The notes under the pieces were generated by a model. It had not been told where the DNA came from and ran no database searches. It saw nothing but the letters and a program-made list of their open reading frames with translations. Below, piece after piece: positions 4,091 through 52,486 of a stretch of 64,000 nt of DNA (positions are counted from its first letter, which is position 1; the number at the start of each line of letters is the position of its first letter). Origin of the DNA: a virus (Duplodnaviria > Caudoviricetes); the IMG/VR virus record IMGVR_UViG_3300035390_000014, positions 96,001-160,000 of that record, one strand, 5' to 3'. The position numbers and the translations under genes were made by a program.

Positions 4091-5401
4091 GTGGATCATA
4101 TTGATATTGTACGAAGGTTGTGTGACAACAACTGTAGCACCTATTTGGTAGGTGGTGGGATCAGGGATATGTTACTTGGTAACGATCCTGATGATTTTGA
4201 TGTTGTCACAGAAGCAACTCCTGATAAGGTGATGGAGTTGTTCAAAGATTGTAATGTAAAACAGGTTGGAAAATCATTTGGAGTTATTTTAGTTGAAGGT
4301 TATGAAGTTGCAACCTTTAGATATGATAGATATAAAGATTCTAAATGTATTGTTTCATTTGCAGATAATATTCATGAGGATTTAAAGAGAAGAGATTTAA
4401 CAGTTAATGCTATGGCATTTTGTGAATTAACTGGAGAATTGATTGATGATCATGGTGGACGAGATGATCTTGATAGAAGGATTATTAAATTTGTTGATGA
4501 TCCTGATATAAGAATTAAAGAAGATCCTTGTAGGATTCTTAGAGCTTGTAGATTTTTATCTAAAATTGATGGAACATTTGAGTATAATACATTCAAATCA
4601 TTAAAAAGAAATGTATGGAAATATAAAATTGCCCCTGAAAGAATTAGACTTGAAATTTTAAAAGCAATGAAAAATAAGGAAGCTTCTAAATTTTTTAAAG
4701 CTTTAAAATCAATTGGTATGTTGAAACATATTCTACCAAGTCTTGATAAATGTTGGAAACATGAACATGGGATCCATCATAAGGAAGATGTATTTGATCA
4801 CTGTATGTATTGTGGAGATTCAATTTCTTGTGATGACCCAATTCTTAAATTAACTGGCTATCTTCATGATGTTGGGAAACCAATTTCTTTTAAAGATGGA
4901 AAGTTTATTTATCATGAGATAGAAGGTGCTGAGGCATTAGAAAAAGAGTTGAAAGCATTAACATTTACTCTTGATGAAATTAAAAGAATATGTAGTCTGG
5001 TTAGATTACATATGAACTCAATTCAAAAAATGACTCCAAAAGCAATTAGAAAGTTGCTTAGAAAATTTGATGAATATGGGGTTATAATTGATGATTTCAT
5101 GGTATTGAGAAAAGCGGATAGAAGAGCTAACATTGCAAGAGAGGATTTTACACCAGAAGAATGGATTGCAATGGAACAACAACTAAGACAAGAGATTCTT
5201 GAAGATAAACCTTTTAACATTCATAGTCTTATATTTAAAGGTAGAGATATCATTGAAGTATTTGATTTATTACCTGGAGCAAGAATTGGTAAGATTCAAC
5301 ATTTGATGATGGATTATATTGTTGAAGAAGGTCAACAATATAATACTTATGAAGATTTAAAGGAATATGTTATTAAAGTTTTAAAAGAAAAATTGGTTTA
5401 G
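4091..5401 (+). CDS. cca: CCA-adding tRNA nucleotidyltransferase with HD domain
   Basis: LVGGGIRD, DFDVVT, DLKRRDLTVNAMA, EDPCRILRACRF, HDVGK; CCA versus poly(A) activity not resolvable by eye. Confidence 0.85.
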   Translation: MDHIDIVRRLCDNNCSTYLVGGGIRDMLLGNDPDDFDVVTEATPDKVMELFKDCNVKQVGKSFGVILVEGYEVATFRYDRYKDSKCIVSFADNIHEDLKRRDLTVNAMAFCELTGELIDDHGGRDDLDRRIIKFVDDPDIRIKEDPCRILRACRFLSKIDGTFEYNTFKSLKRNVWKYKIAPERIRLEILKAMKNKEASKFFKALKSIGMLKHILPSLDKCWKHEHGIHHKEDVFDHCMYCGDSISCDDPILKLTGYLHDVGKPISFKDGKFIYHEIEGAEALEKELKALTFTLDEIKRICSLVRLHMNSIQKMTPKAIRKLLRKFDEYGVIIDDFMVLRKADRRANIAREDFTPEEWIAMEQQLRQEILEDKPFNIHSLIFKGRDIIEVFDLLPGARIGKIQHLMMDYIVEEGQQYNTYEDLKEYVIKVLKEKLV

Positions 5402-9660: not shown

Positions 9661-10317
9661 ATGGATAATTCTTTATTTATAAATGAAATATGTATAGGAT
9701 TACTTGGTAAATGTAATTGGAATTGTAAATATTGTATAGCAAAGAATAATATTTCTTTTAATGAGGATGATATAATAGAACAAATAGTTCCTATGAAAGA
9801 TAAATTAAAAACATTGTGGTTATCTGGTGGTGAACCTGGAATATTATCTGATAATTTTTGGAACAAACTATTTAATTTAACAGAATATAAACTTAAAATT
9901 TGTACTAATGGAACATTTATTTTAAATGGATTTGCTGATAAATATGAATCTAAGATTAATGCAATTACGATTCATTGTGTAGAAGAATTAGATCAAGATA
10001 TTAATCCAATTGTTTTAAATTTTATTAAAACTACTAAAATTAAATTACAAGTCAATGTTGTTATACATAGATATAACGCTCATTTAATAAAATCTTTTTT
10101 ACAAAAATATAATGATATTAATATTGTATTTAATTTTTCTGATGAAAGCTTTTGCAAAATACCAGATTATAAATATTATATAAATAAAGATGCTGCAATT
10201 GAAATAATAAAGCAATTATCTGGTTTTAAACATTATGGTATTTATACAACACGTTTAGCTAAATGTATTATAAAAAATAATTTTAAATATATAAATCCAT
10301 GGTCAATCAAAAATTAA
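9661..10317 (+). CDS. radical SAM protein
   Basis: CNWNCKYC and SGGEP motifs. Confidence 0.75.
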   Translation: MDNSLFINEICIGLLGKCNWNCKYCIAKNNISFNEDDIIEQIVPMKDKLKTLWLSGGEPGILSDNFWNKLFNLTEYKLKICTNGTFILNGFADKYESKINAITIHCVEELDQDINPIVLNFIKTTKIKLQVNVVIHRYNAHLIKSFLQKYNDINIVFNFSDESFCKIPDYKYYINKDAAIEIIKQLSGFKHYGIYTTRLAKCIIKNNFKYINPWSIKN

Positions 10318-13074: not shown

Positions 13075-13464
13075 GGGGATGAAATGGTATCGCTATAGGT
13101 AGGAATTTTATACTGCGCTTCGTGAATGATTGAGTCACGTTAAAATTGATCATGTAAATACAACTGCAGACAATTTCGCAGATGATTACGCACTAGCAAT
13201 AGCAGCGTAATTCGTTCTAGTTAGTTTATATCTTCGGATTAATATAGGGCGTCGACTTAGAAGATTAGAATTATATTGGTTGGACATAAGATAATTCCAT
13301 GTGACTTTATAATTTGAAACTACTACAGAAATTTATCCTTCAACAATGTTGTTTTGTCAATTCCACATATAGTGATTTGTTGAAGTATTAAAAATTGACT
13401 ATAAGCGTAGATGTATTCTTGGAATATACTATATACTCGAGTTCGACTCTCGACATCTCCACCA
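13075..13464 (+). ncRNA. ssrA: tmRNA
   Basis: GGGGATG/CATCTCC acceptor with G3:U70, A73-CCA, T arm CGAG-TTCGACT-CTCG; tag frame 13166-13210 (A)ADNFADDYALAIAA-stop. Confidence 0.93.
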
Positions 13465-28949: not shown

Positions 28950-29161
28950 TAAAATTTATACAAAAAAAAGATAGACTGACAGATAGATAACGAAATCCCA
29001 AAGGGACCCGTTATAGATAGACAGGGGTTAGTACAATAATCTCTTATATACTAGTTAATAATATATATAGTAATATTTACTATAATGGATTGTATTATAA
29101 GAAACTTTCTTTTTCATATAGAACATATTATAAATGATAACCGTGTATAGGAGAATTTATT

Positions 29162-29677
29162 ATGAGTGTCAAAGATTTGGTAGAAAAAGGTCGTGTCGAT
29201 AAAGAACTAGAATGGATTAAAAAAAGAGAAGCTGAAAAACAAACTCATATTGATGAAAAAGCAAAAAGAGTTAAACAAGCTCAAGCACATATTGATAGTT
29301 TAATGACTGCATTTGAAAAAATATATTTTGATATTGATGCAACTGATGAAGAAGTTGCTAAATGTATATTAGAAGAAAATTATAGTATTATGGATAGTAA
29401 CCAATGTCTGTATAGTCAATTAGCTTTCAGAGAGAAAGATGTTCGTAAATATGTAGATGCTGAAAGACATTCATGGGGGACATCATCTCCACGTGATCAT
29501 GAATTTTATTTAATATCAAAATATGAAAAATATAATATATGGAAAAAAGCTTTAGAAGATAAATTTGGTATATTTATTCAATTCAGAGAAGAAGAACATG
29601 AGGGAGCAAGCAGAGGTTATAATGCTCCACCTGAAAGAGATTCATCTGGCATTGAATGTATTTTAAGTATTAAATAG
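29162..29677 (+). CDS. hypothetical protein
   Basis: AGGAG RBS after motif A. Confidence 0.6.
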   Translation: MSVKDLVEKGRVDKELEWIKKREAEKQTHIDEKAKRVKQAQAHIDSLMTAFEKIYFDIDATDEEVAKCILEENYSIMDSNQCLYSQLAFREKDVRKYVDAERHSWGTSSPRDHEFYLISKYEKYNIWKKALEDKFGIFIQFREEEHEGASRGYNAPPERDSSGIECILSIK

Positions 29678-29853
29678 GAGTCTAAAATGCAAAAAGCTTT
29701 ATATAGAAAACACAATGATAGGCAAATGAATAGTAGTACATATCATAAGAAAGATGGTACTAACATTAGAGCTAAATTAAAAATTCAATTAAAGAAACGT
29801 ATTCAAGAAACTATTTCAGACAAATAGAACATAATATAAATGAATGAGGTTAT

Positions 29854-30027
29854 ATGAAAACCATAGAATGTCCTTTATGTAAAGAGATTATTAAGAAAAA
29901 TAATCTTAAAGGTCATTGTTGGTATGCTCATGCACTTAGTATATCGAAAGATCCTAATAAAAAAAATAAACCATGGGATCAAGTAGGTATTGATAAAATT
30001 AAAAAAGTAATTGGTGGGTTCCCATAA
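29854..30027 (+). CDS. small C2H2 zinc finger protein
   Basis: Manual translation MKTIECPLC...GHCWYAH; stop lies inside tRNA-Ser(GCU). Confidence 0.5.
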   Translation: MKTIECPLCKEIIKKNNLKGHCWYAHALSISKDPNKKNKPWDQVGIDKIKKVIGGFP

Positions 30028-30099
30028 TCGGCATTGGAAGTGATTGCTAATCACTCGGGCTTCACAGCTTTGCAGGTTCAAGTCCTGTACCCACCGCCA
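30013..30099 (+). tRNA. tRNA-Ser(GCU)
   Basis: AGTGA-TTGCTAA-TCACT, variable arm, G73-CCA. Confidence 0.92.
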
Positions 30100-30197
30100 A
30101 AATATGGACAGGTTGCTCAATGGCAGAGCAGCTTTAAAAATATTTATATTTTTAGGGTGTAAGGTGGCTCGAAACCATCCAAGTGCATCAACTATGA

Positions 30198-30372
30198 GCC
30201 TGTATAGCTTTTGGATAAGCATTATAGATTAAGTAATCTTTAATAGTGTACATAAAATTAGATAAAAGAACTATAATTAGTAGATTTTTTTTATTATTTA
30301 TTTTGATGCGCATTGAGATATTTATATAAGAATTTTCAGTGATCTATCGGGGTTCGATCCCCCTTGCAGGCA
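30198..30372 (+). ncRNA. tRNA-like RNA with anticodon arm replaced by ~120 nt AT-rich insert
   Basis: GCCTGTA/TGCAGGC acceptor, D arm GCTT/AAGC, T arm GGGG-TTCGATC-CCCC. Confidence 0.55.
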
Positions 30373-30379
30373 TACCTAT

Positions 30380-30491
30380 GAGCGTGATCTAATAATCGGT
30401 AATATACGTCAGGTAGTATCAAGACAATGCAACCGGGCCTCGCCAAGAAGTACTGATGTAGATATGGGTTCAAGTCCCATTCACGCTCCCA
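30380..30491 (+). ncRNA. tRNA-like RNA with expanded anticodon region
   Basis: GAGCGTGA/TCACGCTC plus CCA; T arm ATGGG-TTCAAGT-CCCAT; 8-bp TACGTCAG/CTGATGTA enclosing ~40 nt. Confidence 0.6.
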
Positions 30492-30694
30492 ACCATTAAA
30501 CGTATATAGGTGAAATGATGGATGAAAAACTAGATGTATTACAAGATGATTTAAAAATTAAACCCATATCTAAATCAAAATGGTATCAGTTTAATAAAAA
30601 AGAAAAAGAAGGTCTGGCCATTACAGGTATTATAACTGCACTTGTTAGTGTAGGTTTTTATTACTTTATTAAGATTGCTGGATAATAACAATTG

Positions 30695-30783
30695 TGCGCT
30701 ATAGAGTAGTTGGTCAACTCACTTGTCTCATAAGCAAGACTCCCTAACCGGAGACGTAGGTTCGAATCCTACTAGCGCTCCCA
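30695..30783 (+). tRNA. tRNA-Met(CAU) with long variable arm
   Basis: CTTGT-CTCATAA-GCAAG, variable stem CTCC/GGAG, 1:72 mismatch, CCA. Confidence 0.85.
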
Positions 30784-30824
30784 AACAACTAAATGTGTAT
30801 TAGTGAATCTAAGGAGAATGTGAA

Positions 30825-31076
30825 ATGGCGTTATTTGGAAATGGTAATGGCAAAAAGAAAACAGTTGCGGGTATTACAGAATCATTAACTAGAATTAAAA
30901 CTGATCTTCAAATTCTTGAACAAGAGACTGCTGAGGAATTGGAACAATATAACCTTGAACAGATGGCGCTTCAACTTAAAATTGAAGGTGCTAAATCTGA
31001 AAAGAGTAAGGGATTTACAATATTTAAAAATATTTCTGCTCTTTTAGGAGAACCTGTAGAAGAAGAAGCTGTTTAG
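30825..31076 (+). CDS. hypothetical coiled-coil protein
   Basis: AAGGAG RBS; ends TAG TAA TGA. Confidence 0.6.
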   Translation: MALFGNGNGKKKTVAGITESLTRIKTDLQILEQETAEELEQYNLEQMALQLKIEGAKSEKSKGFTIFKNISALLGEPVEEEAV

Positions 31077-31085
31077 TAATGATAT

Positions 31086-31157
31086 GCCGAGAATCTAAGG
31101 AGATATCTATGTTTCATACGCAAAGACTAGTGGATTCGATTTCCACTCTCGGCACCA
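31086..31157 (+). tRNA. tRNA-Met/Ile2(CAU), atypical
   Basis: GCCGAGA/TCTCGGC, loop TTCATAC, short D arm, A73-CCA. Confidence 0.7.
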
Positions 31158-31177
31158 AATTAAATTGGGAAGAGAAT

Positions 31178-31759
31178 ATGAATTATATAATTTATAAAAC
31201 TACAAATAAAATAAATTCTAAAATTTATATTGGAGCTCATAAAACAAATAATCTTAAAGATAATTATTTGGGATCAGGAGATCTTCTAATTAAAGCTATT
31301 AAGAAATATGGAACTAAAAACTTTAAAAGAGAAATACTTAAAATTTTTGATAATTCTGATGATATGTATATTATGGAAAAAATGATTGTAAATAAATGTT
31401 TTGTTGAAAGATTAGATACTTATAATTTAAAAATTGGAGGAGTAGGAGGATGGGATTCAGAACCTCGTAAAAGATTTAAATTATTAATGGAAGATGAAGA
31501 ATATGTTAAATGTTTTAGTGAAAAAATTAAAAATGGACAAAAAATTTATATTAAAGATCCTGAAAAAAGAAAAACTTTTTTAAATAAAACTCACAATGAA
31601 GAATCAAAAAAGAAAATAAGTAATTCTAAAAAAGGCACAGGATGTGGAAAAAATAATTCACAATTTGGAACAATGTGGATAACCAATAATATTAAAAATA
31701 AAAAAATAAAGAAAACAGATCTTATTCCAGAAGGATGGAATAAGGGAAGAAAATTCTGA
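31178..31759 (+). CDS. GIY-YIG homing endonuclease
   Basis: YIIY..KIYIGAH..YLGSG; start reassigned past the tRNA. Confidence 0.85.
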   Translation: MNYIIYKTTNKINSKIYIGAHKTNNLKDNYLGSGDLLIKAIKKYGTKNFKREILKIFDNSDDMYIMEKMIVNKCFVERLDTYNLKIGGVGGWDSEPRKRFKLLMEDEEYVKCFSEKIKNGQKIYIKDPEKRKTFLNKTHNEESKKKISNSKKGTGCGKNNSQFGTMWITNNIKNKKIKKTDLIPEGWNKGRKF

Positions 31760-31988
31760 CTTATCCTGTACAACGTATCCATAGAGGATGTGACCCTTTT
31801 AATTAAGGGTGAAGAGCGGGTGTTGACACAGCCAAGCCGGATACTGCTAGTCAACACAATTAGGTTAAGTTGGGCATGTTTTAAATGTGTGATGGTCAAA
31901 AGTGTTTAAAGGATACTGCTGAAATGCTACGTTAGTTAAATAGAGGCTTCCTTGCCCTTGCATTAGGCAGCCATCACACATTTATTTT

Positions 31989-32064
31989 GGTTCCATCGTC
32001 TAATGGTTAGGACATAAGGTTTTCAACCTTAAAATCGAGGGTTCAATTCCCCGTGGAATCACCA
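31989..32064 (+). tRNA. tRNA-Glu(UUC)
   Basis: TAAGG-TTTTCAA-CCTTA, CCA. Confidence 0.9.
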
Positions 32065-37388: not shown

Positions 37389-37462
37389 CGGGAAGCGATC
37401 AAGGAGACAAGTATGCTTTGGAAGTATGCGATAGGCTGGTTCGATCCCAGTCTTCCCGACCA
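37389..37462 (+). tRNA. tRNA-Pro(UGG), second divergent copy
   Basis: CGGGAAG/CTTCCCG, loop TTTGGAA, weak D arm. Confidence 0.75.
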
Positions 37463-41464: not shown

Positions 41465-41618
41465 TTTGTATTTTATAAAAGGTTAAGAACGGAAAGATTA
41501 TACATAAAATAACTCAGGTGGTAGAGTATTTGCCTCAAAAGCAAACTGTCGTTGGTTCAATTCCAACTTTTAACAAAACCTAATCTTTTATATTACTTAA
41601 CCTTTTATAAGATACAAA
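41465..41618 (+). ncRNA. Y-RNA-like unit 1 (tRNA body joined at the acceptor end)
   Basis: 23-bp terminal IR, GAACG/ATTACT internal loop; D arm, TTTGC-CTCAAAA-GCAAA, T arm GTTGG-TTCAATT-CCAAC. Confidence 0.8.
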
Positions 41619-41622
41619 TTTA

Positions 41623-41761
41623 AATGAGAGAACGAAAAATGATTACAGATTATTACTATGATTAAGTAAAGGTCGCAGGTTCGAGTCCTGTCATAAGGGA
41701 AACTTTATGTAACTCAGTTGGTAGAGATTATATCAACAATCATTTTTATATTACTCTCATT
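41623..41761 (+). ncRNA. Y-RNA-like unit 2 (circularly permuted tRNA: anticodon, T, acceptor, D)
   Basis: AATGAGAG/CTCTCATT stem; TTACT-ATGATTA-AGTAA; GCAGG-TTCGAGT-CCTGT; CATAAG/CTTTATG; ACTC-AGTTGGTA-GAG. Confidence 0.8.
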
Positions 41762-41872
41762 ACATTTTTGTAGATCGCCGGTGGGTGACTATGCACCTTG
41801 GAAAACATAACTTTAGATGACTGGTAATTATCCGGTATATATCTAATTTCCCGGGGATCTACAATACAATTT

Positions 41873-42002
41873 GCCCTCATTGAGAGCGTTTCTACCAAGG
41901 AGCCATAATGTTGAATCTAGATAGATGTTATGGAAATTGATTAGAGCGAGAGGTATTCTCATTGGTCTTAGGATCAGATAGGTTCGAGTCCTATTGGGGG
42001 CT
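41873..42002 (+). ncRNA. tRNA-like RNA (acceptor plus T arm) with large central domain
   Basis: GCCCTCA/TGGGGGC, ATAGG-TTCGAGT-CCTAT; nested stems TGAGA/TCTCA and CCATAA/TTATGG. Confidence 0.55.
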
Positions 42003-42012
42003 GAATAATTTT

Positions 42013-42160
42013 AATGGAAGAACGGAAAATAATTACAGTAGTCCATTAGGAGGACGTGTTTGGAGGTTCGAATCCTTCTTTCCCCACCACACATTTATGG
42101 GGAAATAGGCAAACTGGTACAGCCGCGTAATACAACAATTATTTTTAAATTACTTCCATT
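42013..42160 (+). ncRNA. Y-RNA-like unit 3 (permuted tRNA with internal ACCA)
   Basis: AATGGAAG/CTTCCATT; GTCC-ATTAGGA-GGAC; GGAGG-TTCGAAT-CCTTC; TTTCCCCA/TGGGGAAA; D arm GGC..GCC. Confidence 0.8.
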
Positions 42161-42240
42161 ACTTTTTTATGCCGGGTGATACGTATGTTTATCCATACGC
42201 CGGCTCCATTATTATAATAATAAAAAACAGGGAGATTAGG

Positions 42241-42717
42241 ATGAAAATGAAAACAAGTTTAATTTATGGTTTAATTTTGGTAATGGTTTCTATGTTAGCA
42301 ATTTCATGTAGTCAAAGGAAATTGGTAACAACTCCTGTTTTTAAAATGACTATTGCTGAAGTAAAAGTTGCAGCTCCTGAACCTGCAACAGTAACTGATA
42401 TCAGAGAAAGCATAATGTTTAAATATGATAGCTCTGTTATTGAAGAAATTGAAATGAAAAAGGTTGAAGAAATTGCTGGAGTAATGGCACTTTATTCTGA
42501 TACAGACCTAGTCCTTAAAGGTTATGCAAGTTCAGAAGGTACAACCGAATATAATACTGAACTTTCTTTAGCAAGGGCTGAAGTTGTAAAAGCTGAATTA
42601 CTAAGCCTGGGTGTTTCAGAAGATCGCATTCTTATACTAGGTCATGGAGCAACCAATGAATTTGGTGAGCTTCTAGATTTAAACAGAAGAGTCCTTGTTT
42701 TAAGCATGGATGAATAA
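42241..42717 (+). CDS. OmpA-family peptidoglycan-binding lipoprotein
   Basis: LAIS-C lipobox; GYASSEG..YN..LS..RA..VK; NRRV. Confidence 0.85.
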   Translation: MKMKTSLIYGLILVMVSMLAISCSQRKLVTTPVFKMTIAEVKVAAPEPATVTDIRESIMFKYDSSVIEEIEMKKVEEIAGVMALYSDTDLVLKGYASSEGTTEYNTELSLARAEVVKAELLSLGVSEDRILILGHGATNEFGELLDLNRRVLVLSMDE

Positions 42718-42725
42718 CAATATTT

Positions 42726-42810
42726 AAGTCAGAACGAAAAGAGATTACAGTAAAAATTAATGCTTCCAAACAGCAATACAATACAACAATTTCTTTTGAA
42801 TTACTGACTT
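42726..42810 (+). ncRNA. Y-RNA-like unit 4 (stem plus single hairpin)
   Basis: AAGTCAG/CTGACTT, GAACG/ATTACT; TGCT-TCCAAAC-AGCA. Confidence 0.7.
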
Positions 42811-42824
42811 TACATTTTTAAACT

Positions 42825-43090
42825 ATATGAGGTTTGTCGTTTTGAAATATGAAACGAATACTTTAATCAGGATTTGTATTTTGCTATTTTATTGCCCTGG
42901 ATAATACCGGCCCCCAATGGGACTGCCTGGTTACTGGGCCTGCATAACCCACGCGCGTGGTTGGCACTTTAGATCCTGAAAAAGTAAAAAATAGCTGAAA
43001 ACGTGGAGACTATCCACTACTAGATTTGACAACCTAGAAACTAGTACACAGTAAGCTGAGATTGTCAGTCTTAGAATCTGTGCCTCATAT
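42825..43090 (+). ncRNA. unclassified structured RNA, ~265 nt
   Basis: ATATGAGG/CCTCATAT closing stem, several nested stems, GC-rich core, possible pseudoknot. Confidence 0.55.
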
Positions 43091-43102
43091 TACAATTTTT
43101 AG

Positions 43103-43249
43103 AGAGTTAGAACGAAAAAATATTCCAGATATACAATATAGGTTCAATCCCTATTTTGGGCTCCAAGCATGCCCATGCTGACAATTGGCTGTCAACTTGT
43201 CTTAAACAACAGGTGTAATAAATAAAATATTTTTTAAATTACTAACTCT
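43103..43249 (+). ncRNA. Y-RNA-like unit 5 (permuted tRNA: T, acceptor, D, anticodon)
   Basis: AGAGTTAG/CTAACTCT; ATAGG-TTCAATC-CCTAT; TGGGC/GCCCA; TGAC/GTCA; CTTGT/ACAGG. Confidence 0.8.
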
Positions 43250-43350
43250 TTTATTTAAAATATTCGTCATAACCTTAACCAGTTATGACGAATATTTTTT
43301 TGCCGACAATAGGAACGAATCATTTTAAACGTGAAAAGGAGAAAATCCGA

Positions 43351-52407: not shown

Positions 52408-52486
52408 GTCCCTGTATACCCTCTGATTACGAACCAGATGAAAGGTTAACGGACACATGGAGGTTCGAATCCTCTCAGGGATACCA
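52408..52486 (+). tRNA. rearranged tRNA-Arg(ACG)-like gene
   Basis: GTCCCTG/CAGGGAT plus ACCA; T arm; TCTGA-TTACGAA-CCAGA arm begins 7 nt after the acceptor strand. Confidence 0.65.

Follow-up and report, generated by a model that had tools for sequence, protein, structure and literature searches.

Results

Genomic setting of the array

The window, as we call the whole 64,000-nt stretch analysed here, is part of a 202,719-bp (~203 kb) record of an uncultured phage from sediment, IMG/VR virus record IMGVR_UViG_3300035390_000014. All of the record's 26 tRNA genes, as identified by ARAGORN, fall inside the window on the plus strand, together with a genuine tmRNA gene, a phage-encoded gene for a CCA-adding enzyme and a gene of the RlaP (RNA-repair) type, and the tRNA island holds several homing endonuclease genes. 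Most genuine tRNA genes of the window encode their CCA and follow an A/U-rich spacer with a terminal U. Positions 30106-30491, between tRNA-Ser(GCU) and a small ORF, are occupied by three further tRNA-shaped elements, E1, E2 and E3, which have the strand (+) and the spacing of the phage's genuine tRNAs (spacers of 6, 10 and 7 nt).

4091-5401: CCA-adding enzyme gene, phage-encoded
13075-13464, + strand: tmRNA, genuine (ARAGORN)
30013-30099, + strand: tRNA-Ser(GCU) (ARAGORN; 48 bits in Rfam)
30106-30189, + strand: E1, mosaic tRNA-shaped element
30198-30372, + strand: E2, 175-nt element read as a tRNA-shaped RNA gene
30380-30491, + strand: E3, 112-nt element read as a tRNA-shaped RNA gene

Relatives of the locus were reached through homologues of two small flanking ORFs, on short contigs from sediment and other metagenome assemblies (L019, L020, L034, L035, L036, L039, L040, L041 and L042). 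They have a common frame, in which tRNA-Ser(GCU) is followed by a row of tRNA-shaped elements and then by tRNA-Met(CAU); the genuine tRNA-Ser(GCU) keeps its place 5' of the look-alike array in L020, L034, L035, L036, L039, L040 and L041. In the window the 5' end of this tRNA gene is overlapped by an ORF for a 57-aa Cys-rich protein (29854-30027), which has no counterpart in L020, L034 or L035 and is likewise missing from a contig of one DNA run, where a joint skips 169 nt (window 29843-30013); the ORF looks like a recent insertion.

Neither ARAGORN at its default settings nor the Rfam tRNA model RF00005 (gathering threshold 29 bits), searched up to E=10, reports E1, E2 or E3. A genome-wide scan for a T arm and then a matching acceptor returned E2 and E3 among a handful of GC-rich, CCA-type matches that are unannotated. 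Scans for promoters and terminators gave chance-level results only. Antisense targets of E1-E3 sought in the phage genome amounted to A/T-rich chance matches, one of them a 12-nt match in orf56 that is not kept in L020.

The 112-nt element E3

The first-pass annotation had described E3 as combining a His-like G-1:C73 end and CCA with a T arm and a stem. All of these parts are present, the stem consisting of 7+2 bp with a bulged G and enclosing 35 nt.

30380-30387 with 30481-30488: acceptor, 8 bp including G-1:C73
30390-30404: D arm
30406-30415 with 30451-30459: extended stem, 7+2 bp, one bulged G
30416-30450: conserved 35-nt core, with ACCGGGCC at 30432-30439
30464-30480: T arm AUGGG-UUCAAGU-CCCAU; variable loop AGAU
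30489-30491: CCA

As read from the sequence, E3 has the nucleotides of a tRNA tertiary core (U8, A14, A15/U48, G18G19 and a UUCAA T loop). Homologues were found in L020 (2160-2271), L034 (1161-1272), L035 (391-497) and L036 (374-480), and in part in L019; covariance model R1 gives the L020 copy 144 bits and the partial L019 copy 70 bits. In the alignment of five sequences every cell at a paired position is paired (123/123, 100%; slid controls 31-50%), and RNAalifold independently returns the same three helices. The covariation in related phages that the first-pass annotation had proposed looking for was found in E2 (nine compensatory pairs) and in E3, where it affects 10 of 25 pairs (acceptor five, anticodon-like stem two, T stem three), counts which, with three to seven sequences per family from one narrow clade, represent few events and partly shared ancestry. 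E3 is 96-97% identical to its homologues in L020 and L034; the comparison values are 77-87% for the adjacent orf56, 75-81% for orf83 and ~62% for the neighbouring tRNA-Met. The D region, CAGGUAGUA, ACCGGGCC and AGUACUG are invariant among the homologues and the remainder of the core varies; ACCGGGCC occurs only once within the window. A candidate pseudoknot between D loop and core (UCGGU with ACCGG) has both sides invariant.

With its 8-bp acceptor and G-1:C73, the end of E3 is identical to that of the phage's own tRNA-His. The His-like end is thus confirmed in the window, and it recurs in L020 (where UCA replaces CCA) and L034, but it is not conserved in the family: in L035 and L036 the acceptor has 7 bp and is followed by A73 and UCA. 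An identity as tRNA-His was rejected, the GUG loop being absent from E3 and G-1:C73 missing in L035 and L036. Also rejected was a nine-codon AUG...UGA frame in the core as a tag or peptide, as both frame and peptide differ in L035.

The 175-nt element E2

E2 had been noted for a paired acceptor and D and T arms around a large insert, and this arrangement is borne out, with an insert of ~127 nt.

30198-30204 with 30365-30371: acceptor GCCUGUA/UGCAGGC, 7 bp
30207-30220: D arm GCUU/AAGC
30221-30277: hairpin domain 1, with an invariant 20-nt loop (30240-30259) that contains the quasi-palindrome GUGUACAU
30283-30337: hairpin domain 2, with a GCGC cap (30308-30311) inside the palindrome AUGCGCAU
30348-30364: T arm with UUCGAUC loop; A73; CCA not encoded

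The predicted minimum free energy of E2 has a z score of -3.8, and none of 200 shuffled sequences was as stable. The homologues in L020 (1976-2146) and L034 (973-1149) are 76-79% identical and end in C73-CCA. Seven helices make up the consensus, among them the acceptor, the D stem, a long-range helix, the second long hairpin and the T stem; 95.8% of cells at paired positions are paired across the three sequences (slid controls 40-49%) and nine pairs are compensatory, the RNAalifold structure being counted here on its own source alignment. The long-range helix joins AUUAUAG/CUAUAAU and AUCU/AGAU around the invariant 20-nt loop, and one of its pairs covaries from A-U to G-C in L020, which favours it over the local hairpin predicted from the single sequence. 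What had appeared to be an anticodon-like hairpin is better read as part of this longer, covariation-backed helix.

E1 is a mosaic of two look-alike families

30106-30112: 5' acceptor strand GGACAGG
30115-30129: D arm GCUC/GAGC
30131-30158: sealed 12-bp A/U-rich hairpin with UUUA loop (z -3.2 against shuffles)
30163-30179: T arm GGUGG-CUCGAAA-CCAUC, with atypical T loop CUCGAAA
30180-30186: 3' acceptor strand CAAGUGC, unmatched; A73, UCA

The D and T arms, the AT hairpin and the poorly paired acceptor that were first remarked on in E1 are all there, the hairpin being 12 bp long and GGACAGG/CAAGUGC pairing at four of seven positions. The two ends of the element have different affinities. Its last 32 nt match an intact element of L034 (893-967; score 26/32) that has a perfect acceptor GCACUUG/CAAGUGC, A73-CCA and the sealed arm CCUAUUG-ACCA-CAAUAGG; its first 25 nt are closest to L020 element 'a' and to what we call the GGACAGG family. 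On these sequence matches, E1 is a recombinant of two look-alike genes, both of whose families are intact elsewhere, and its unpaired acceptor is explained by that recombination. The crossover would most simply lie within the common D-arm sequence. E1 is probably defunct and not processed as a tRNA.

The GGACAGG family is found 3' of tRNA-Ser in L020, L035, L036, L039 (twice), L040, L041 and L042. Its acceptor, D arm, T arm and C73 are conserved, the third acceptor pair can be followed from A3-U70 through A3·C70 to G3-C70, and acceptor and T stem are 95% paired, with three of the four broken cells contributed by the window's E1. The arms that take the place of the anticodon arm in E1's relatives are 16-28 nt long and unrelated in sequence; they have no common triplet, and they always form a closed hairpin, with loops as different as UUUA, UUCG, GGC, CAACC, ACCA and UUAAUU.

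The GGACAGG acceptor and D arm match exactly those of tRNA-Phe of Planctomycetota, Ignavibacteriota and Bacteroidota, and in all 120 bacterial matches to the pattern the loop reads CUGAAAA and position 73 is A. In the phage look-alikes the arm is sealed, and C73 stands where bacterial tRNA-Phe(GAA) has A73. On these comparisons the family is a derivative of tRNA-Phe in which the arm was sealed and the discriminator changed. C73 recurs in the GGACAGG family, in element 'a' and in E2 of L020 and L034.

Turnover of the array

The content of the array is different in every relative; there are at least six families and several chimeras, and families are gained, lost and recombined among relatives. 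Most homologues across the families end in N73-CCA, several in UCA instead. The Rfam tRNA model does place relatives whose sealed arms are short above its threshold, with 33-47 bits, and ARAGORN gives sealed look-alikes in L020, L035, L036 and L039 the false identities Ile(GAU), Gly(UCC), Ala(GGC), Ser(CGA), Val(AAC) and Pro(UGG).

A further look-alike family (L020 1772-1880, L034 775-885, L035 294-380, L039 4372-4430 and L042 1-50) has an enlarged 'anticodon' loop with a kept GUGCGCGC(C/U)UAAU, a quasi-palindrome, two copies of which could pair as a 10-bp duplex. The family is not represented in the window, in which motifs of the GUGCGCGC type do not occur.

The tRNA-Met(CAU) that lies 3' of the array (window 30695-30783; L020 2475-2550; L034 1460-1535; L035 504-589) is only ~62-73% identical among relatives whose E3 is 96-97% identical, and has a long variable arm in the window, L019 and L035 and none in L020 and L034; it seems to have been swapped and not vertically inherited.

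Contigs of four DNA runs cover the region in near-identical strains, with E1-E3 unchanged. In one marine-sediment run, weak joints (sides of 30-35 nt) connect the end of tRNA-Ser with the beginning of E3, and the same run has a diverged E3 core with ACCGGGCC kept. To judge from these weak contig joints, E1 and E2 may be absent in some relatives, and hence dispensable.

Searches farther afield were negative within their scope. Exact and degenerate DNA patterns for E2 and E3 gave 0 matches in IMG/VR; the E3 T-arm pattern found 12 loci in JGI metagenome contigs, all of them ordinary tRNAs by covariance model R1; blastn of positions 29000-32000 against 50,697 cultured-phage records matched a GIY-YIG endonuclease gene only; and six distant relatives (DNA polymerase 43-49% identical) gave no homologue of E1-E3 by blastn or model R1.

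Other odd tRNA-shaped elements

An odd tRNA(CAU), missed by ARAGORN and Rfam, provides an internal control.

31086-31158, + strand: odd tRNA(CAU), 73 nt

It has the acceptor GCCGAGA/UCUCGGC, A73-CCA, a canonical T arm and the anticodon loop UUCAUAC (CAU); a D stem is absent, and the D region contains a conserved GGAGA. It lies directly 3' of an 83-aa ORF in eight relatives, in all of which (8/8) the loop YUCAUAM is invariant, with seven compensatory pairs. The gene probably encodes a second CAU tRNA, one that lacks the D stem. Its loop is thus frozen where decoding matters, whereas the arms of the E1 families drift and E2 and E3 have no such loop. The gene falls inside a listed ORF (31079-31759) for which an ATG near 31179 is the likelier true start.

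We observed four more elements of related design. At 37389-37462 (+), directly 3' of tRNA-Pro(UGG), a 74-nt tRNA-shaped element combines the acceptor CGGGAAG/CUUCCCG, A73-CCA, a canonical T arm and a UUUGGAA loop (UGG) with an unpaired AUCAAGGAGACAAG in place of the D arm, a GGAGA-type D region as at 31086. At 52408-52486 (+) there is a CCA-ended element with acceptor GUCCCUG/CAGGGAU and T arm GGAGG-UUCGAAU-CCUCU, and no recognisable D or anticodon arm. L037, from record G006 (DNA polymerase 45% identical), has in its tRNA island (10024-10097, -) an unannotated 68-nt CCA-ended element with acceptor and T arm, a 10-bp hairpin and no D arm; its presence in this distant relative takes non-standard tRNA-shaped genes beyond the close clade. 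Finally, a complete 50-kb phage with terminal repeats (L053), unrelated and GC-richer, has at 4586-4655 (+) an element whose body, with a GGACAGG acceptor, is of the tRNA-Phe type; its discriminator is C73, its arm consists of 6 bp and a 3-nt loop, and the Rfam tRNA model scores it at 56 bits. The sealed design may have arisen in another lineage too.

Discussion

The elements were first described as tRNA-shaped RNAs without decoding capacity, and for E2 and E3 this description holds: compensatory changes preserve their helices, no 7-nt U33 anticodon loop can be drawn in either, and E3 diverges more slowly than the flanking genes. Each has a 7-bp acceptor on a 5-bp T stem with a UUCRANY loop, of which E1 retains the T arm only, and none of the three has the 5-bp anticodon stem, 7-nt loop, U33, conserved anticodon and purine 37 of a decoding tRNA. 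Very probably, E2 and E3 are real, selected RNAs that do not decode. As the best overall explanation, to which we give a probability of roughly one half, we suggest that E2 and E3 are stable non-decoding tRNA look-alike genes, that E1 is a recombination-damaged copy, and that the role of the look-alikes is of a decoy type.

Under this explanation, we infer that E1-E3 would be co-transcribed with the tRNAs of the cluster and that E2 and E3 would be released by RNase P together with trimming of the 3' end; in genes that do not encode CCA, it would be added or repaired by the CCA-adding enzyme, of which the phage has its own. The look-alikes are predicted to fold into an L shape, with a 7-8-bp acceptor stacked on a canonical T arm, and they would read no codon, since the place of the anticodon arm is taken in the E1 families by a sealed hairpin, in E2 by two hairpin domains and in E3 by a stem and 35-nt core. 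Thanks to the tRNA body, the RNAs could be processed, remain stable and reach tRNA-binding proteins; the substituted arm might be either inert and uncleavable or a specific binding module. Look-alikes of this kind may occupy or divert host factors directed at tRNA, for example defence enzymes that cleave or modify tRNAs.

That E2 and E3 serve as decoys or pseudo-substrates is the tentative part of this proposal, and taken alone we consider it possible but on the unlikely side. It is favoured because accessory conflict loci typically turn over fast, as this array does. It is weakened in that countering an enzyme with a stoichiometric decoy is inefficient, and the conservation of the E2 and E3 cores suggests specific partners, which a generic decoy leaves unexplained.

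A more ambitious version, which we regard as doubtful, treats the array as a modular RNA anti-defence locus, a tRNA chassis with interchangeable payload arms. The payloads would be the sealed hairpins, the loops GUGUACAU, AUGCGCAU and GUGCGCGC, and the E3 core ACCGGGCC; each might bind or jam a different tRNA-directed host factor, or pair with a second copy, and the modules would be reshuffled among phages by recombination in the manner of protein anti-defence genes.

Four other accounts of the locus deserve comment. One holds that the tRNA shapes act only in cis, recruiting RNase P or RNase Z to the cluster transcript or blocking exonucleases, with no role in trans. Acceptor and T arm together form the minimal substrate of RNase P and RNase Z; the elements lie between genes of one co-oriented cluster, and in the sealed families the sequence of the variable arms seems free of constraint. 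We nevertheless think this improbable, given that real tRNAs in tandem with the elements already supply such sites, and that the long, sequence-conserved cores of E2 and E3 would be superfluous for processing, while D arms and tertiary-core nucleotides are likewise kept.

It is also quite improbable that the elements are amino-acid carriers working outside translation, charged independently of an anticodon (E3 by HisRS through G-1:C73) so as to donate or sequester amino acids or titrate a synthetase. G-1:C73 is the main determinant for HisRS in bacteria, the window, L020 and L034 copies of E3 have the tRNA-His end of the phage, and C73 is recurrent in several families. The E3 acceptors of L035 and L036, with 7 bp, A73 and UCA, do not fit such a role, nor do acceptors that drift compensatorily without keeping their identity within a family, and no transferase gene linked to the array was found. 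With acceptors that drift and a His-like end that only some lineages have, aminoacylation is unlikely to proceed through a conserved acceptor identity.

Decay, in which E1-E3 would be functionless pseudogenes produced by duplication, homing-endonuclease activity and recombination, was among the first-pass suggestions. It accounts well for E1, a mosaic with mismatched acceptor strands and an atypical CUCGAAA T loop, in an island where homing endonuclease genes abound and array content is unstable among relatives, and one could add that the window's E2 lacks an encoded CCA. As an account of the three elements together it is very improbable: compensatory changes keep the helices of E2 and E3, including the stems that replace the anticodon arm; E3 is better conserved than the flanking ORFs; replaced arms stay perfect hairpins despite unrelated sequences; and L034 has an intact, CCA-ended member of the family to which the 3' half of E1 belongs. 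Because of this compensatory evolution and slow divergence, the decay reading is not supported for E2 and E3, and only the E1 part of the suggestion survives.

The suggestion that the inserts are tRNA introns, to be cut out and the ends rejoined, with an E3 anticodon GUA or AGU drawn from the conserved GGUAGUA, has in its favour that ARAGORN with a relaxed threshold and introns allowed models E3 as tRNA(AGU) with a 33-nt intron near 37/38 and E2 as tRNA(UAU) with an 87-nt intron, that in every homologue the E3 core lies between GGUAGUA and GUACUG, and that the phage encodes RNA-repair-type proteins (RlaP), but it is highly implausible: those models need non-canonical stems, appear only at a 90% threshold and fail at the default; sequence and folds reveal no bulge-helix-bulge (no 3-nt bulge pair around a 4-bp helix); the inserts, at 35-127 nt, are far below group I size (over 200 nt) and have conserved motifs of their own (ACCGGGCC in E3, the invariant 20-nt loop in E2); position 33 of E3 would be G under a canonical stem; the sealed-arm relatives have no common triplet; and Tyr, Thr and Ile tRNAs are already present in the window.

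How do the proposed look-alikes relate to RNAs already known? With canonical tRNA they have in common the acceptor, D arm, T arm, tertiary-core nucleotides and N73-CCA ends, and the elements of the window differ from it in lacking the 5-bp stem and 7-nt U33 anticodon loop. In tmRNA, too, a large insert is enclosed by an acceptor and T arm of tRNA-like form, but a tmRNA identity was rejected: ARAGORN -m (80% threshold) finds nothing in 29950-30850, there is no match to RF00023, and pseudoknots of that kind are missing. The Ro60-bound YrlA and Y RNAs are also non-decoding and have a tRNA-like T/D elbow. In YrlA, however, the ends exit through the Ro60-binding stem, the acceptor is closed and the tRNA-like module is internal, whereas E2 and E3 have their ends at the acceptor helix; the Rfam Y-RNA model has no match in E1-E3, and the repeated 'handle' sequences of 41480-43250 are, by eye, not found in them.

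Stable non-tRNA RNAs in phage tRNA clusters, species 1 and 2 of T4, have been known for 50 years. These RNAs (rnaC and rnaD, NC_000866 70908-71171) are likewise small stable RNAs inside a phage tRNA cluster, a homing endonuclease gene of the GIY-YIG type adjoins them, and E1-E3 occupy the same kind of same-strand position. In predicted folds, rnaC ends with a canonical T arm (CCGGG-UUCGAAU-CCCGG) after two long hairpins, a layout that resembles E2, but unlike E2 it has no clear D arm or 7-bp acceptor. A blastn search of the phage collection gave no sequence similarity to rnaC or rnaD, and we take the likeness as one of analogy and not of membership. The function of T4 RNAC and RNAD is still given as unknown (PMC9697503). 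For sealed-anticodon tRNA look-alikes in phages we found no description in the searchable literature. What appears to be new here, as far as sequence comparison can tell, is the mosaicism of E1, the tRNA-Phe origin of one family and the covariation for the two large-insert forms.

The locus presents the non-tRNA RNAs of a phage tRNA cluster as a diverse, selected and quickly reshuffled set, built on a tRNA body from which the decoding part is missing. One practical consequence is that counts of phage tRNA repertoires are distorted or inflated, since standard finders miss look-alikes or assign them false anticodons. If the targets of the look-alikes are host factors directed at tRNA, for instance defence nucleases, synthetases or enzymes of modification and repair, the look-alikes would be an RNA counterpart of the protein anti-defence genes, and, if true, this would partly explain the investment of large phages in tRNA islands.
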